Positions 44 to 60,853 of a stretch of 64,000 bases of DNA are shown piece by piece; position 1 is the first letter of the stretch, and every line of letters begins with the position of its first letter. The DNA lies in contig OX597816.1 in assembly GCA_951406725.2 (NCBI GenBank), positions 3,286,001 to 3,350,000 of the forward strand, in the 5' to 3' direction. Below the pieces are notes generated by a model that ran no database searches, was not told the origin of the DNA, and was given only the letters and a program-made list of their open reading frames with translations. This DNA comes from Octopus vulgaris (taxonomy: Eukaryota). The translations under genes were made by a program, and so were the position numbers.

Positions 44-1373
44 CGTGGTCTGATCAATAAGTATCCGGACTGTTGCTATAGTAACGAAGCTAAAGCACGC
101 AAAGTAAAGCCGCTTGGCACAGATTGACCTTGACCTCTCTGTTGTGCATGCGCACCAAGTTTTAACGTTCTAGCCCACATCCGCTGTTTACAGCAGTGCT
201 TGCAAGGAACGTGTGTAGCGTGTGATCATCGCATTGACCATGACAAAGAATGTCGAGCAGAGAATCTGCATCAAATTTTGCCAAACAACTTGGCGGTAGC
301 TGCTCAGAGACCTACGCAAAGTTTTTAAAAAGTGTATAGAGAGGAATGTATGATCCGAAAAAATGTCGATATTGACGAACGCTCTGGGAGAGCCGCAACC
401 AGCAGAACTGAGAAAACCATTGCAGATATGCGTACAGCTGTGAGGGGAAATCGTTGAATCACCATCCGTGAGTTATCAGAGGATGTGCAGATTAGTTACG
501 GTTCTGTTCAATCCATTATCACTGAAGAAACCAATTCTACTCTATGACTCAGAAACCTGGACGTTATCAAAGAAGCTTGAGAGGCGGTTGGATGGAACTT
601 ACACTCGCCTCCTTATGAGAGCTCAAAATCTCTCGTGGAAGCGTCATCCAACCAAAGTACAAATATATGGGAAATTACCACCTGTATCATCTCTTGTGAA
701 AGGTAGAAGATTCCAGTTTGTTGGACATTGTTGTAGAGCTGAAAACAAGGTAATTTCTACTCTTCTCCTCTGGAAGCCATCTGCTTGCGATACCAGAGGG
801 CGCACATTCTCCTACCCTGATGTAATCTCCAGGGATACAAGCATCCAGCAACAGTACCTCCGTAATGCTATGATGGACCGTGACGTCTGGCGTAACATAG
901 TAAATTCCATTGTCTCAACCCCGGCCAAACAATGATGATGATGATCATTGAAGATTTGGGTACAAGACGCGTGTCTGCCAAATTTGTGCCAAAACTACTT
1001 TCAGCTGACGACGTACCTGCCCATTCAGCGCGGCTTGTCCAGCAATTTTTGGCTAGGCACAGCATTCCCCAGGTCCGACAGCCACCGTATTCCCCAGATC
1101 TCGCCCCTTGCGACTTTTGCCTCTTTACAAAAATCAAGTTCCGCTTGAGAGGAAGATTTCAGAACGTCGAGGAAATCAAAGTGAATGCGTCGAGGCAGCT
1201 GCTGATTATCCCAGAAAACGAATTCCAAGAATGCTTCCATCAATGGAAACAACGCTGGATTAAGTGTGTGGCTTCCGAAGAGGACCACTTTGAAGGTGAT
1301 AAACTAACAAATTGGTACGTGCTGTAGTTTTGTTTTTATAGCACTAGTCCCTATACTTATTGATTAGACCTCG
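44..1373 (+). mobile_element. Mariner (DD34D-type) DNA transposon, defective, interrupted by a LINE
   Basis: About 28-bp TIRs (cgtggtctgatcaataagtatccggact / agtccctatacttattgattagacctcg) flanked by TA at 42-43 and 1374-1375. Transposase remnants: MTKNVEQRICIKFCQ from 240, EDLGTRRVSAKFVPKLL, PPYSPDLAPCDF, FHQWKQRWIKCV. Frameshifts are present and the region carrying the first two catalytic Asp is deleted. Confidence 0.93.
529..943 (+). mobile_element. 5'-truncated RTE-type LINE 3' end inserted in the mariner
   Basis: ORF text ILLYDSETWTLSKKLERRLDGTYTRLLMRAQNLSWKRH...AMMDRDVWRNIV is a typical RTE C-terminus. (ATG)n tail; target duplication atcactgaaga (518-528) / atcattgaaga (944-954). Confidence 0.88.
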
Positions 1374-10335: not shown

Positions 10336-10665
10336 TTAAAATTCTTCACTTGTAGGTATTGGACTTCGGCAAGAATGTGCATTGCCACCCCTCCTTTTTA
10401 TAATTGTTATGAGCAGGATTGACATGCGCAGCCGTTCTAGAAGTGGTGTCACAATCGTTGGGTGTAAGATCGGTCGGTTGATATTCGCAGACGACATGGT
10501 GCTACTCGGTTCATCAGAGAACGATCTCCAGCATGCAGGGAATGGTTTCCATGCCGAGTGTTGCAAAGGCAAGAATGAGAATTAGTCTTGCGAACACTGA
10601 GACATTGATTCCCTCAAAAACAAGTATTGGAACTCTGCATGCAAGTGGAACATCAGTGTAACCAA
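10336..10665 (+). mobile_element. RTE LINE RT core (inverted 5' part of the adjacent element)
   Basis: GLRQECALPPLLFIIVM...LIFADDMVLLGSSENDLQHA...FHAEC...MRISLANTE, i.e. the RT QG and YADD-type motifs. Confidence 0.85.
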
Positions 10666-13570: not shown

Positions 13571-14509
13571 ACATACAAGTACACATCCTCTGTAATTTAT
13601 GCACAAAATTCTGAGGTTTTGCAGATTTTTATTGTCCTAGATATCGTGATCTTGTCCAACGTATTGGTTGTTGAGAGAGATTTTCTCTCCAAAAATCCAA
13701 ATCCAGCCATATTTTAATCCAGCTGGGGCGGTACTTAACCTGTCTCTTTAATAACATTTGATACGAAGCTGAAAGTATAATGAGGGTGAAGGGTTTACAG
13801 ATTCCCCACCGATGAGCTATCCATATTCTCTTTCTCGCCCATTCTTTAAACACATTCATATGAAGAGGGGACCAAATCTCCCCAGCAAAGTTTTTTGCAA
13901 TTTTGCGGCCCTAAAAAACGATACGAGGCTGGTTGTGTTTTTATTTGGATGCTGTTTTTATTGTTCAGTTTTAGCAACACTCACACACTCACACACACAC
14001 ACACAATGATCAATATAGCTTGTTATCAGCCTTTTTCTCTTTCTCTCTCCCTTTTACTCTGTTTGTGTGTGTGTGTGTGTGTGTGTGTCTAGCGGTTGAG
14101 GAGACGCAGGTGTAAGAGTAGCTTAGAAACGCACTGAATTACTGGTTGGACTGGTCAGATTCTTGAGCTCTACCTTCCCAATCAGGGTGGGGAGGGGTGG
14201 AATAGTCCAGCCGGACAAGAGTTGGCTATAAGAAATGCAGAGCTTGAGTGCATAACAAATAGATAAAGCATGGACAAGCATTAATGAATAGTCCTATCTC
14301 ATTTATACAAGGTTTGACGTTACAGCTGTTTCGAAGATGCTATAAAGCACATTATTCAAACCGGCGTATAAGGCAATGATTATGCGCGGTAAATAAGCTC
14401 AAGGCAAAACTATTATCAACTCGCATAAAACTGGAGACAGCGAATATCTTCGTGGGAAGAAAGGGTTACATTTGCATGTTTTGCTTACTTGCAGTGTATA
14501 ATTATTGAT

Positions 14510-14680
14510 TTCAAATTTTGGCACAAGGCTAGCAATTTGGGGAAGGAGGTAGATCGATTACATCGACCCCAGTGCACAACTGGTACCTATTTCATCGACC
14601 CCGAAAGAATGGAAGGAAAAATCGACCTCTGCGGAAATTGAACTCAATGTAAAGACGGATGAAATGCCGTTAAGCATCCC
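14510..14680 (-). mobile_element. SINE family A
   Basis: cgattacatcgaccccagtg...ctggtac...atcgaccccgaaag...gaactca is the reverse complement of the family A body. Confidence 0.75.
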
Positions 14681-16854
14681 TTAGGACCTCCCCAAACTAG
14701 ACACCAGTGTTTAAGCCTGGTCCAAACCTTATTAGGTTATCTGTGAAGAAAACCAAACAATACCAAAGGGATTCCTACAAACTGTGTATCTACATACACT
14801 TTCCACTTTACAGAAATGAAAGACAACCAAGAATAACGAGACTAACATATATGAAATTCACAATCCACCATAACGTTTGTTCATTCCCATCATCAGTATC
14901 CAAACGGATATCATTATGGTTTCGACACCTGGGCGGTACTATTCAATCCAGCACTGGCCATAGCGTTAAAAATATAAACACTGCCTGGGAATCCTCCGGG
15001 GACAGAAGCCGGCGGGTAACTTAGAACTTAGAGATCCGGATTAGCTACGATAAAACATCTCGTCCGACGCTCTAATAATTCCGCCAATCCACCACCCTGG
15101 ATTAATACTTTATTTATTGGCCCCCGCCAAAAGGATGAAAGGTAAAACTGACTCCCGTGGGAATTGAACTCAGAACGAAAATATCGAAACAAATCTCGCA
15201 AAGTATTCTATCCGATGCTCTTCCAGTTCTTTCTATGCACGTACATCCTGCCTTTTATTTTTTCGTCTGGCGCAGTTCACCTCGGACTATATGATTTAAT
15301 GTGCTCGATTTTTTGTAAGATTGCACAAGGTGATTTGAGAGAGATTAATGCTAGCAGGTGGAGCTACGCCATAGAGACTGTCGTTGGCAGATAAATAGAA
15401 TCAGTAGAGCATCCGTTAGATGAAATACTCGGAGTTCTGAGTTCAAATCCCATTGATAACGATTTTCTTTGTGGGAACCATAAAATAAAAACCCTTTTAG
15501 TCCAAGAATTGAGTTAATCGATAGTTGAGTGGGTTTTGTGACCCTTTTGCAAATCAATATTGTGTGTGTGTGTGTACTAACATATTAAAAAGGATACAAT
15601 AGTTTGTACACACGTATATTAATACATACAGGCACACACACATACGTATATATACACACGATTATATGTTACGTAATATACTAATGTATATCTATCTGTA
15701 TGTTCATGTGTGTGTATATATATACATATATATATATGTACGTATGCTTGTGTGTATGTGTGTGTGTGTATGTGTGTGTGTGTGTGTGTGTTCTGTACAT
15801 GTACAGATGTCTCCCATGCAATTAAGCACGTGTCAAAGAGTCAAAGGAACACGCTGTAAGATGTCTGTATACAGCATATAAAATCTAGGTGGAGTTGTTT
15901 TATTTATGTACTTGTACCGTATTGTATAACCGAGAACAGGCATGTCTGCATGGCTGTCCTATAGATACGCTTCACCTAAACGTTTATGGTTGCTGTTAGC
16001 GGACGGCCATATTTTTCTTCTGTATTCTTTATACGTTATTTTTGCCCTCTCTGTATAGGAGAGCTTCTTTTCAACAATGGTCACATATGTAGAAATATTT
16101 TATTTTCTTTCTCCTTTCAGAAAAAAAGATTTCCTTCTGTTTTCTTTACAAAAACCAGTCAGAAGGGAAGGAGGGAAAGAAATTAGAAGAATATTATAAA
16201 ATTGTTTAAAAGCCATTTTATAATATGTTTGTTGTTTTTTTTTTTGTATGTAATTTTTGTTGTATTTTATTTTTCACCGTTTTCTTTTGACATATAAAGA
16301 AGTATTGAAGAGGTAAAAACTATGTCTAAACCTGTCCCGAATTAAACAACAGAAGTGTTAAAATGGTGATTATTAGCAAATAATGAACAGCCAAATTGTA
16401 AATATATAAATAAAATACAAAATAATGGAAAATATAATAAATAAAAAAAAAATTATTTGTTTTATTTGGTTTTTTTTTGTCGCCACCGATTTCATTTTTT
16501 TTTCTATATTGCTTTTGTTGTTGGTGGTTGTGATGGTGGAGACGTTGTTGCTGTTGTTGTTGTTGGTGGTGGTGGTGGTGATGAAGATGATGTATATGAT
16601 GATGATGATGATGATGATGGTTGTGATAGCGCTGTTGGTGGTTGTGAGGACCGTATCATTGGTAGCACTGGTGGTTATGATGTGGTGTTGATGGTTGCGA
16701 TAGTGCAGTTGATAGTGTTGGTAGTGGTGGTGGTGGTGGCGGTGGTGGTTGAAATGGCGGCGGTGGGTGGGGTGGGTTAGGATAATCGTAACAAATCGCG
16801 ACAATATTTCTAACATCAAAAACTTATTTAATTTTAAAAAATGTAACTAAAACC

Positions 16855-18130
16855 AAACCACCACCATCACCACCACCACCACCACCACCACCACTATCTC
16901 TTCCGCCACCACCATCACCTCTACGAACCACTAATGCCACCACTCGCACCACCACCACCACCACTACCACCACCACCACCACCACCACTACCACCACCAC
17001 TACCACAACCACCACCACCACCACCAACAACACCACCACCACCACCAAAACCACTATCTCTTCCGCCACCACCATCACCTCTACGAACCACTAATACCAC
17101 CACTCGCACCACCACCACCACCACCACCAACACCACCACCACCACCACCAACACCACTATCTCTTCCGCCACCACCATCACCTCTACGAACCACTAATGC
17201 CACCACTCGCACCACCACCACTACCACCACCACCACCACCACCAACACCACCACCACCACCAACACCACTATCTCTTGCGCCACCACCATCACCAACTAC
17301 GAACCACTAATGACGGCAATAAATAAGAAAGGTACGAGAAAGAAAAAAAAAGAATTAAAAATAAAGAGATAAAAAAACAGCACCACCACCACTAACACCA
17401 CCACCACTAACACCACTGATGAAAAGCATTTCCGCCACCACCATAACAACAAACGTCTACGTACCAGCCTAATGCCACCACTCGCACCACCACCACTCGC
17501 ACCACCACCACCACCACCACAACCACCACCACCACCAACACCACTATCTCTTCCGCCACCACCATCACCTCTACGAACCACTAATACCACCACTCGCACC
17601 ACCACCACTACCACCACCACCACTAACACCACTATCTCTTCCGCCACCACCATCACCTCTACGAACCACTAATGCCACCACTCGCACCACCACCACTAAC
17701 ACCACCACCACTAACACCACTATCTCTTCCGCCACCACCATCACCTCTACGAACCACTAATGCCACCACTCGCACCACCACCACTAACACCACCACCACT
17801 AACACCACTATCTCTTCCGCCACCACCATCACCTCTACGAACCACTAATGCCACCACTCGCACCACCACCACTACCACCACCACCACTAACACCACCACT
17901 ATCTCTTCCGCCACCACCATCACCTCTACGAACCACTAATGCCACCACTCGCACTACCACCACTACCACCACCACCACCACCACCACCACCACAACCACC
18001 ACCAACACCAACACCACCAACAACTACAACAACAACAACAACAACAGCAACATGACGGCAATAAATAAGAAAGGTACGAGAAAGAAAAAAAAAAAGAATT
18101 AAAAATAAAGAGATAAAAAAAACAGAAACA
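16855..18130. repeat. Complex minisatellite: ~55-bp constant core separated by variable (CCA)n
   Basis: About 9 copies of ctatctcttccgccaccaccatcacctctacgaaccactaat(g/a)ccaccactcgca, plus a ~70-bp A-rich block duplicated at ~17310 and ~18052. Confidence 0.9.
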
Positions 18131-27567: not shown

Positions 27568-27852
27568 GGATTCACAATTTTTGTTAGTTGATATATGTTA
27601 GTCACATATTTCAACTGATACATAAATACAAAGTATGGGGTTTAGTTCACAGGTGATCTAAACGATTAGGTACGCTAGGTAAGCGCTGTAACGGATTACC
27701 AGGGCTCCAAGGTTATAGCCGAGACGGTATGCAATGGAGCCATTGCAGATTTCTGATGCAGCGGATGTATAATTGTTAAAGAGGACAACAAACATTAAGG
27801 CAAGGCAAACATCTCAAGTCATTTACATTATTATTATTGGAAAAAATTCAAA

Positions 27853-27908
27853 GTCTTACAGCTGTTTCTGGGATATCCCCGAGTATGGGATACTCCGTCA
27901 TCAGAGAC
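27853..27908 (-). ncRNA. Candidate minimal type-I hammerhead ribozyme (Penelope-type)
   Basis: Minus strand: GUCU CUGAUGA C GGAGUAUCCC AUACUCG GGGAUAUCC CA GAAA CAGCUG UA AGAC. Stem I GUCU/AGAC, intact CUGAUGA, GAAA and UH core, long stem II, palindromic stem III. Confidence 0.65.
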
Positions 27909-28158
27909 AAATAGGAACAAAATAGGGAAAATGAGAAAGGTATATGTTAATGAGATGACTACATAGAGGAAGGGGCTAAAAGAATGAGGAGATGGAGAGA
28001 AAGAAGAAGAAAGAAGCATAAAAGTTCATAGTTCAACTTTCTGATGTTGTAGAAACAAGAGCATAAGTCCTTAGGTGCAATCCTGCGTAGATCCAGGGGT
28101 GTTAAAATCCTGATGTTTACGCAAATCTCTCGACTGCTTGCCTGGCTTGCTATCAACT

Positions 28159-40342: not shown

Positions 40343-40525
40343 TTTGTTGTGTCTGGGGAGAGTCATACTGCTTAATATATTGAACACACTCACCGGTTCA
40401 ATTTCCACTCACTTACTTATTTTTTTGTCTGTTTCAGACAAAATGAATAAATAAATGAGTGGAAACTGAACCGGTGAGTGTGTTCAATATACTAAGGTAA
40501 TATGACTCTGCCCAGACACAACAAA
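40343..40525. mobile_element. Fold-back element, same family as 36446-36691
   Basis: tttgttgtgtctggggagagtcata...cactcaccggttca / tgaaccggtgagtg...tatgactctgcccagacacaacaaa. Confidence 0.8.
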
Positions 40526-54167: not shown

Positions 54168-54216
54168 CACTAATAATAATAATAATAATGATTATTATTA
54201 TTATTATTATTCTTAA

Positions 54217-54756
54217 GGCGGCGAGCTGGCAGAGACGTTAGCGCGCCGGATGAAATGCTTAGCGGTATTTCGTCTGCAGAGAAGGCGGCGAGCTGGCAGA
54301 AACGTTAGCACGCCGGGCGAAATGCGTAGCCGTATTTCGTCTGCCGTTACGTTCTGAGTTCAAATTCCGCCGAGGTCGACTTTACCTTTCATCCTTTCGA
54401 GGTCGATTAAATAAGTACCAGTTACGCACTGGGGTCGATATAATCGACTTAATCCGTTTGTATGTCCTTGTTTGTCCTCTCTGTGTTTAGCCCCTTGTGG
54501 GTAGTAAAGAAATAGGTATTTCGTCTGCCGTTACGTTCTGAGTTCAAATTGCGCCGGGGTCGACTTTGCCTTTCATCCTTTCGGGGTCGATAAACTAAGT
54601 ACCAGTTACGCACTGGGGTCGATGTAATCGACTTAATCCGTTTGTCTGTCCTTGTTTGTCCCCTCTGTGTTTAGCCCCTTGTGAGTAGTAAAGAAATAGG
54701 TATTTCGTCTGCCGCTACGTTCTGAGTTCAAATTCCGATGAGGTCGACTTTGCCTT
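54217..54756 (+). mobile_element. SINE family A tandem multimer (184-bp period)
   Basis: Partial head at 54217, full head at 54284; repeat units start at 54332, 54516 and 54700. Confidence 0.9.
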
Positions 54757-57187: not shown

Positions 57188-57750
57188 GGCGGCGATCTGG
57201 CAGAATTGTTAGCACGCCGGGCGAAATGCCTAGAGGTATTTCGTCTGCCGTTACGTTCTGAGTTCAAATTCCGCTGAGGTCCTTTCGGGGTCGATTAAAT
57301 AAGTACCAGTTACGCACTGGGGTCGATATAATCTACTTAATCCGCTTGTCTGTCCTTGTTTGTCCTCTCTGTGTTTAGCCCCTTGTGGGTAGTAAAGAAA
57401 TAGGTATTTCGTCTGCCGCTACGTTCTGAGTTCAAATTCCGCCGAAGTCGACTTTGCCTTTCATCCTTTCGGGGTCAATTAAATACCAGTTGAACACTGG
57501 AGTCGATGTAATCGGCTTAATCCGTTTGTCTGTCCTTGTTTGTCCTCTCTGTGTTTAGCCTCTTGTGGGTAGTAAAGAAATAGGTATTTCGTCTGCCGCT
57601 ACGTTCTGAGTTCAAATTCCGCCGAGGTCGACTTTGCCTTTCATCCTTTCGGGGTCGATTAAATAAGTACAAGTTACGCACTGGAGTCAATCTAATCGAC
57701 AGGCCCCCTTCCCCAAAATATCGGGCCTTGTGCCTAAAGTAGAAAAGATT
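57188..57750 (+). mobile_element. SINE family A tandem multimer
   Basis: Head at 57188; units start at 57236, 57404 and 57584; the final unit ends with the alternative tail ggccttgtgcctaaagtagaaaag. Confidence 0.9.
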
Positions 57751-59639: not shown

Positions 59640-60853
59640 CCTCATAGTATGAGCCTTTGTTTGAAATAAGTTGAAAAAGGCGCTGATCCATGAAACATGC
59701 TAATTTCTGGGTCTCTTCTGATGTTATATCCCGAGATATACTGACTATCGCCTGCTACAGTTCATCCTTGCGCCTAAATTGGCATCCATTCTTGTAAACT
59801 GGTTGCTTTAGAATACTCCACAAGGTTTCTATTGGGTTCAGGTCAGGGGAACAGGCAGGCCACTTCATCTTCCGAGGCCCACGGAAGCCTAATTCTGTAG
59901 TTTTCTTCACTGAGTGTGAGGGCACATTATCTTGCATGAATATTATGGTTATCTTGAAGGTAATCCTCTGCTTCTTCAACCAAGGTTCAAAGTGCTCCCC
60001 CAGAAACGCTATGTAAGCATCCGCAGTCATTTTAACACGGCCAGGCACTTTCCAAAGACCACCCGTAATGCTTCCAATAATACCTGCCTAAATCATGATG
60101 CCTCTTCCCACTTGTTGGCCTTTCAAGCGTTGGTGACAATCTCGTCCATTTACAACCCATCCTTTGTTCCAGCCATCAGGTCAATGAAGGGTAGCATGAG
60201 TTTCGTCCGTAAACAAAACTTTTGAAAAGACGACCTTCATGTTATCTTCTGCCCATTTCAAACGATTTTCTATGTGCAATTTGTTTAAAGGAGGCCTTTT
60301 TAACTGATATCACAGGTTTACCGACCTTTTCCAGAAGACATCAGGTAGTTCTGGACACAGTTGTTTCGCCAATGTGCTTGAAAAGTTCTCTACTTGTAAC
60401 ACCTGGGTTTTTTAAGGCTTCACGCCCAATTTGTGAGAGAGCACATTGAGAGACATCCCTCGACTGGCCCTTATCGGCTCTCTTACGTATCTTCGTAGGA
60501 GCTCTAACTGATTTTTCACAGTTTGGTGATATCTTCCAATTATCTTACAAATTTCTTATGATGATTTACTTTTTGCAAATTCAGGAGTAATAACAGATTT
60601 CTCTGAAGCAATTAAGTCACATTTACGGCCCATATCATTAGACCACTCGTTAATAATTTGGAGCACTTAAAGTTCATGGAAATCATGCGAATGGCCATGG
60701 TTTTGTTTACATTTGCGCAAAACCTCACATTTTTTACACACTACGCACATATAGCTGCTGCCATTATTCTGCGGAGATTTCATTGAATTCCAGCCAGTAA
60801 TTTTTTAATAAAATAAAAAAAATATTATGTCGTTAATAATTTGAAACATAGTG
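59640..60853 (-). mobile_element. Tc1-superfamily transposon, TRT/DD37E-like, defective
   Basis: Minus strand: MGRKCDL (ATG at 60633), KVLFTDETHATL..PDGWNKGW...QQVGRGIMI*AGII, FMQDNVPSH...WPACSPDLNPIETLW. Probable 5' TIR cactatgtttcaaattatta; 3' end not resolved. Confidence 0.85.

Follow-up and report, generated by a model that had tools for sequence, protein, structure and literature searches.

A minimal type-I hammerhead motif in the remnant of a Penelope-like retrotransposon of Octopus vulgaris

Results

The window, i.e., the whole 64,000-nucleotide stretch of Octopus vulgaris DNA that we analysed, is rich in microsatellites, and its minus strand reads, from 27908 to 27853, GUCU CUGAUGA C GGAGUAUCCC AUACUCG GGGAUAUCCC A GAAA CAGCUG UA AGAC. 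A preliminary description had identified a complete-looking minimal hammerhead with all conserved core nucleotides at this site, and we found it as described: every position of the type-I core (C3-U4-G5-A6-N7-G8-A9, G12-A13-A14-A15.1 and U16.1-H17) is present at 27853-27908 and in type-I order. The helices previously described, i.e., a 4-bp stem I, a stem II of about 9 bp and a self-complementary stem III, were likewise all found around the core, stem III having 2 bp in a monomer and 8 bp in a dimer. The features of the locus, together with the other transposon fragments in the window, are as follows.

27853..27908, minus strand: minimal type-I hammerhead motif with a GUA cleavage triplet, predicted cut between 27857 (A17) and 27856 (sequence reading and descriptor scan; exact scaffold pattern found 621 times in the genome, the control pattern 0 times)
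27905..27908, minus strand: 5' strand of stem I, partner 27853-27856 (sequence; monomer pair probability only ~0.16)
27898..27904, minus strand: core strand CUGAUGA, C3-A9 (sequence; family column counts)
27869..27897, minus strand: stem II region, 29 nt, with an unpaired C (27897) opposite A (27869) at its base, then G-C pairs (family columns and folding)
27858..27868, minus strand: GAAA core strand and palindromic stem III, ACAGCUGU (27865-27858) (sequence; 8-bp duplex of -11.1 kcal/mol, in the two-strand minimum-energy structure)
27629..28114, minus strand: 5'-truncated 3' end (pLTR and long tail) of a Penelope-like retrotransposon, ~490 bp, flanked by microsatellite arrays (repeat search, family alignment)
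27629..27765, minus strand: optional tail of ~140 nt, separating the nearer of the family's two favored 3' ends (~+90 from the cut) from the farther one (~+230) (3' ends of 80 copies)
896-1324 (plus), 59758-60087 (minus) and 10340-10582 (plus): two DDE_3 transposase fragments and one RVT_1 fragment (open-frame domain scan)

The motif displays each of the traits of the minimal hammerheads that Penelope-like elements (PLEs) carry: a short helix I, a long helix II, an extra base after A9 and a palindromic helix III. Its stem II consists of nine pairs (two and seven around one A.C mismatch) above the unpaired C/A, so the Watson-Crick 10.1-11.1 pair directly beside G12 is absent, and a G-C pair follows the unpaired bases. 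Over the 56 nt of the motif the window copy differs from its family by one change, at 27893 in stem II, where A-U has become a G.U pair; the core is intact.

The motif was the sole match to a type-I descriptor in the 64 kb, and 100 local dinucleotide shuffles, our chance control, gave 0.06 (loose) or 0.01 (short stem III, strict) matches per window. Across the genome, core plus stem III matched 2271 times and the reversed control once; both this count and the 621 matches to the full scaffold are lower bounds that include sister lineages. Rfam named no hammerhead, either among the best 150 of 232 matches for the whole window or at E<=10 for 551 bases around the motif; the preliminary description's proposed check by type-I hammerhead models thus came out in favor of the motif by descriptor and not by Rfam, which misses hammerheads of this sort. 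Folding of the 56-mer was no better than that of shuffled sequences (z -1.08), and in the monomer stem I had a probability of ~0.16 and stem III of 0.03, whereas cofolding of two copies placed the 8-bp intermolecular stem III in the minimum-energy structure. Since Rfam and folding are silent on the motif, its support comes from the motif pattern and from the family.

The C opposite A at the base of stem II had been noted as non-canonical and as casting doubt on activity. It is present, but 41 of 60 family copies have C.A at this point and 16 have U.A; C.A is therefore the inherited state of the family and not a lesion of the window copy. The U.A copies fit CpG decay, with CAG variants also occurring. 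Sister lineages have A.A or A.G and less often A-U, U.U or A.C, followed mostly by G-C or G.U, and C.A recurs in an unrelated hammerhead (L100), as does A.C in a young family (L114). Judged from these sequences, a 1x1 mismatch is an architecture that recurs at the base of stem II. Passages of PMC3088659 report a U.U start of stem II, natural mismatch at this point, and tolerated core variants, and of the 56 core strings shown in Fig. S3 (supplement to PMC4209133) one reads AGAAA, in a row that is not assignable with certainty; this string is probably a precedent for an extra base before G12. In the light of these excerpts, a direct 10.1-11.1 Watson-Crick pair is the commonest, not an absolute, feature of hammerheads, and the mismatch counts as a minor variant seen before. 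The core itself also varies among relatives: U4C (CCGAUGA) was found in 11 of 25 sister-lineage copies, all selected downstream of the cut, and this speaks against a core that never varies. Roughly 50% or more of copies have the CCGAUGA core strand in the lineages of L091:7209, L078:3024 and many of L245-L274, and the CUGA copies in such lineages may be products of CpG decay.

The repeat copy that carries the motif (27629..28114) is 5.8% away from the majority of its family columns. A search of the 2.8-Gb assembly returned 2538 first-look candidates, the best 40 of which, when scored, were 86-92% identical; this and the 621 scaffold matches supply the genomic copy number that the preliminary description had called for. 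Among 80 copies spanning the motif, 3' ends fell at +87..+93 from the cut in 35 and at +220..+240 in 36 (71/80 together), and in none within 10 nt of the cut. The 3' ends mostly abut TA-type repeats, and no target-site duplication was discernible within the flanking repeats. The family thus inserted into TA-type repeats and has two favored 3' ends. RNA reaching past the cut was the template of most new insertions, and cleavage by the downstream hammerhead therefore did not set the 3' end. Just beyond the 3' end of the window copy, at 27572-27617, a short piece matches loci L091, L233 and L090, by which a scrap of another repeat is seen to adjoin the element. The 44 nt ahead of the 5' junction had no match among the family and related loci compared.

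The 5' ends of family copies vary, and by stepping upstream of the pLTR we reached a GIY-YIG-type endonuclease with a CNC..C linker and YYIG, CxLC and C.H motifs and, further upstream, an Asn/Thr-rich linker and a reverse transcriptase (RT) with YRDD, i.e., the endonuclease is C-terminal to the RT. Loci L087 and L089 contain the RT, the linker and, ~3 kb downstream, the same pLTR, and their truncated 5' end bears a piece of pLTR in inverse orientation; such an inverted piece occurs in 7 of the 29 loci of the repeat-copy search, and same-strand partial repeats in 2 of them. At L087, L089, L063 and L064 a hammerhead lies in a pLTR whose element has PLE RT and GIY-YIG. The linkage to Penelope RT and GIY-YIG frames that had been anticipated for the motif was thus found, and 5' truncation, inverted 5' pieces and an optional tail, all traits of endonuclease-bearing (EN+) Penelope-like elements, are present as well. 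Apart from the query, the 20 closest RT matches include 18 with internal stops and none with an open frame >366 aa, while relatives at ~44% RT identity have frames up to 1091 aa. The window's PLE family is dead. Among the loci examined, this exact family had no copy with the tandem pLTR-ORF-pLTR layout, but the young relative L107 has it, with hammerheads at 2583 and 7206 (+), one per pLTR and 4.6 kb apart, around a 976-aa frame. Protein-atlas neighbors of another young relative, L114, carry GIY-YIG, RVT_1 and HTH_animal; Pfam-A, applied to one RT piece and to two proteins of young PLEs, named no RT, GIY-YIG or other relevant family, and a PDB sequence search gave nothing relevant.

The family has what we take to be Neptune-type features, i.e., CNC...C motifs before YYIG and TA-type repeats after its 3' ends, both of which are shared with Nematis, the assignment between the two being by motifs. 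By the Cys linker and TA targeting as given in sections of PMC8557442, the clade is likely Neptune, or else Nematis. Naiad and Chlamys, which have an N-terminal endonuclease and no canonical hammerhead, were not matched, the endonuclease of the family being C-terminal.

Intact frames of 806-1091 aa occur in young PLE families (L107, L111:7395, L113:2772 and L114:7237) whose hammerheads have a 50-60-nt stem II and a palindromic stem III; these families are good material for tests of protein-assisted cleavage. Locus L126 has three close copies of another minimal hammerhead (402, 671 and 814), two of them 143 nt apart on one strand and one inverted.

Conservation was compared with four sister-lineage copies that were reached through an RT search and hence not picked for the motif. 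In each, 26-27 of the 27 scaffold bases are those of the window copy, while identity in the flanks is 0.56-0.60 over 100 nt upstream (shuffled 0.56-0.58) and 0.50-0.53 over 70 nt downstream. Within the family, the 673 core letters of 62 copies ascertained by BLAST or RT differed at 18 places, where base-matched flank columns outside CpG would predict 53 (45 if column medians are used), a test that counts letters among related copies and not independent events; 0 of 20000 draws were as low. Conservation falls on the cleavage triplet and the catalytic core, with variation at N7, in loop II and in the letters of the mismatch. In the family, the outermost pair of stem I is either G-C or G.U, and in the loci compared other PLE-linked hammerheads have different stems I that still pair and different palindromes; since the palindrome was a filter in that comparison, the list is no independent test of palindromy. 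The preferential conservation of the core, proposed earlier as a check on the motif, is thus borne out, and the sequences show purifying selection on core and stems, acting between master lineages.

A half-site, GAAA-CAGCTG-TA, had been reported to recur on the minus strand at ~14319-14332. The 12-nt string is present, at 14332-14321, but no CUGANGA (the 5' core strand) lies ahead of it, a profile of the sister lineages gives it E=0.033, and the 241 bp around it match nothing else in the genome. A second usable hammerhead, or a dimer partner for the first, is therefore ruled out at this site, and by its sequence the string is probably due to chance or a scrap too old to recognise.

Elsewhere in the window, tandem and dispersed copies of a tRNA-like SINE, which we take to be an octopus SINE, lie at 54215-54756, 57280-57665 and 14520-14700. 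An ACC-rich array with 88- and 103-nt higher-order units occupies 16857-18019 and, if coding, would give a Thr-rich, mucin-like repeat. A near-perfect, MITE-like inverted repeat of 114 nt lies at 40377-40490.

Discussion

We consider it highly probable that the motif is a minimal type-I hammerhead in the 3' pLTR of a dead, 5'-truncated Penelope-like element (likely Neptune), that an ancestor of the element likely cut its tandem transcript as a dimer, and that the window copy, with no partner nearby, is likely inactive and functionless. Considering the literature and the folding results, the hammerhead of the active ancestor would have cut the tandem transcript of the element slowly, with the two pLTR hammerheads of one transcript pairing through stem III and cleaving, perhaps assisted by the protein of the element. 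The pLTR would double as the 5' leader of the next unit in tandem, since in the sister lineage L096 a start codon, matched by eye, lies ~50 nt beyond the far 3' end; in relatives L107 and L096 the start codon lies ~200-280 nt after the cut. According to portions of PMC4209133, such minimal hammerheads in pLTRs show no monomer cleavage and low dimer cleavage, and portions of PMC11167929 state that an anole PLE cleaves only with the protein of the element, that its RT starts at two internal sites past the hammerhead, and that cleavage is dispensable for insertion in vitro.

The alternative that survives best is that the motif is kept in the PLE for a non-catalytic reason, e.g., as a protein-bound fold or as a promoter or RT-start signal, with no cleavage in this lineage. 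The mismatch at the base of stem II occurs in nearly all lineages and U4C is common in the sisters; since the stem II base departs from the direct G10.1-C11.1/G12 stack and U4C is frequent, selection may partly act on protein binding or fold. Nor are copy starts significantly enriched at the cut. In the window's family, two of eight copies appeared to begin there, which was suggestive, but when sister lineages were included the count was 24/72 against 12/60 (6/30 and 6/30) at two control positions (Fisher p=0.12, odds ratio 2), and the idea that copies begin at the cut site is not supported. These copies were classed by eye, from 72 of 75 matches at the cut site and 30 of 92 and 30 of 44 matches at the controls, and the 24 were reached from 29 starts called by script by removing three internal deletions, two ambiguous inverted joins and one upstream break and adding one. 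Insertions that run past the cut, and the lack of a clear excess of starts there, are in line with the in vitro result that insertion does not require cleavage, the anole element inserting unaffected when it carries catalytic mutations (PMC11167929, in part). Reads of RNA from a related organism fall on either strand of the family and are mostly <95% alike, and no pile-up of read ends at the cut site was seen in three runs, a weak negative given that these are fragmented libraries from a related organism. Against a purely non-catalytic role, the conserved positions coincide exactly with the catalytic core and cleavage triplet, leaving N7, loop II and the mismatch letters free, and natural mismatches at the same position and tolerated core variants are in print (passages of PMC3088659). 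We regard this alternative as rather unlikely, and prefer an ancestrally catalytic hammerhead.

Two further observations concern the RNA. Runs X21-X23 and X4 contain an expressed family copy in which 61 nt (27800-27860), the cleavage triplet among them, are skipped by a joint from 27799 to 27861; it is supported by 118, 44 and 146 reads and by one contig in another study, its ends are not GT-AG on the window, and it was absent among the joints listed for two DNA-like runs and in the family loci examined. This joint may come from cryptic splicing in the antisense direction or from a deletion in the genome, with microhomology of 2 nt. We also considered the GUAAGA at the cut site as a splice donor and rejected it, since no GT-AG joint from it occurs among the joints listed and young relatives have not retained the motif.

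The preliminary description had left the source as either a PLE or a retrozyme, and its first half holds. That the locus is a non-autonomous tandem retrozyme, with 150-450-bp repeats spread via circular RNA, is improbable: a ~490-bp non-coding copy with a type-I hammerhead would suit it, and retrozymes have been described in molluscs (PMC7229834, in part), but copies are single or inverted, have variable 5' ends and run on continuously into endonuclease and RT; no tandem array exists at the site, and same-strand partial repeats were confined to the two loci noted above. The RT and endonuclease linkage and the absence of head-to-tail 150-450-bp non-coding units largely refute it, and the motif belongs to the pLTR of an autonomous-type PLE family. 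Parts of PMC7229834 and bioRxiv 10.64898/2026.07.22.740005 depict metazoan non-LTR retrozymes as similar in having a type-I hammerhead in a short dispersed repeat; the window's family differs in being neither tandem nor unit-length and in being linked to its own RT and endonuclease.

Less probable still, indeed very improbable, is co-option of the window copy by the host as a regulatory ribozyme. Its intact core, its single change in 56 nt and the occurrence of family sequence in RNA reads could be so explained; however, about half of all neutral copies would still have an intact 11-nt core at 5.8% divergence, copies just as intact number in the hundreds, and stem III is not predicted in the monomer. 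Only 45 of 4503 aligned RNA reads were at least 99% alike to the window stretch, and a scan of 104 of the window's 244 open frames gave transposon pieces only, with no host exon family. Chance resemblance to the hammerhead consensus, with which the Rfam result and the folding z-score would agree, has a negligible probability and is refuted by the shuffles, the genome counts and the conservation across lineages.

The motif is an ordinary PLE minimal hammerhead, of a kind already known from the parts of PMC4209133 (Cervera and de la Pena, 2014) that treat metazoan PLEs, with two small twists, i.e., the free mismatch at the base of stem II and the long tail. As in those sections, it lies in a pLTR behind RT and endonuclease, with a short helix I, a long helix II, an extra base after A9 and a palindromic helix III, and mostly occurs singly, in remains of truncated elements; in their Fig. 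S3, the D. willistoni row has a similar stem I and an AGCU palindrome, and the Fig. S3 rows examined include no cephalopod. Unlike the hammerheads in those sections, the window's family has an extra base also between stem II and G12, which produces the 1x1 mismatch whose letters vary by lineage. Portions of the account of Neptune and Nematis EN+ PLEs by Craig et al. (2021; PMC8557442) match in RT, Cys linker and C-terminal GIY-YIG with a CCHH-type motif, and in 5' truncation, inverted 5' pieces, (TA)n insertion and optional tail; they differ in a tail of 30-40 bp, against ~140 nt here, and the window's family has a long Asn/Thr-rich linker before its endonuclease. The Poseidon element of Anolis (PAc), in the relevant sections of Frangieh et al. 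(2024; PMC11167929), also has a pLTR hammerhead and two preferred 3' ends downstream of the cut, which are explained there by internal RT starts on uncut RNA; it belongs to a different clade, and its ORF begins inside the hammerhead, whereas the relatives of the window's family start well after the cut. In the open literature, i.e., outside subscription papers and Repbase, our search for octopus or cephalopod PLE hammerheads found no description of the window's family, and a search of the same scope found none of its stem II base variant; nor did these searches yield an account of the long tail.

Tentatively, and with more doubt than confidence, the family may represent a lineage-wide variant in which a free, 1x1 non-canonical first step of stem II (C.A, A.A, A.G, A.C or U.U) above a conserved G-C was kept through several radiations, including a young family with intact 842-aa frames, together with the 140-nt tail. 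Alone, the window motif matters little, as it is one of thousands of leftovers from a described kind of retrotransposon with a ribozyme. It is useful for asking what PLE hammerheads do, since their catalytic letters are strongly selected and yet insertions run past the cut. If the variant cleaves only with the protein of the element, natural paired variants would test whether Neptune PLEs need cleavage.
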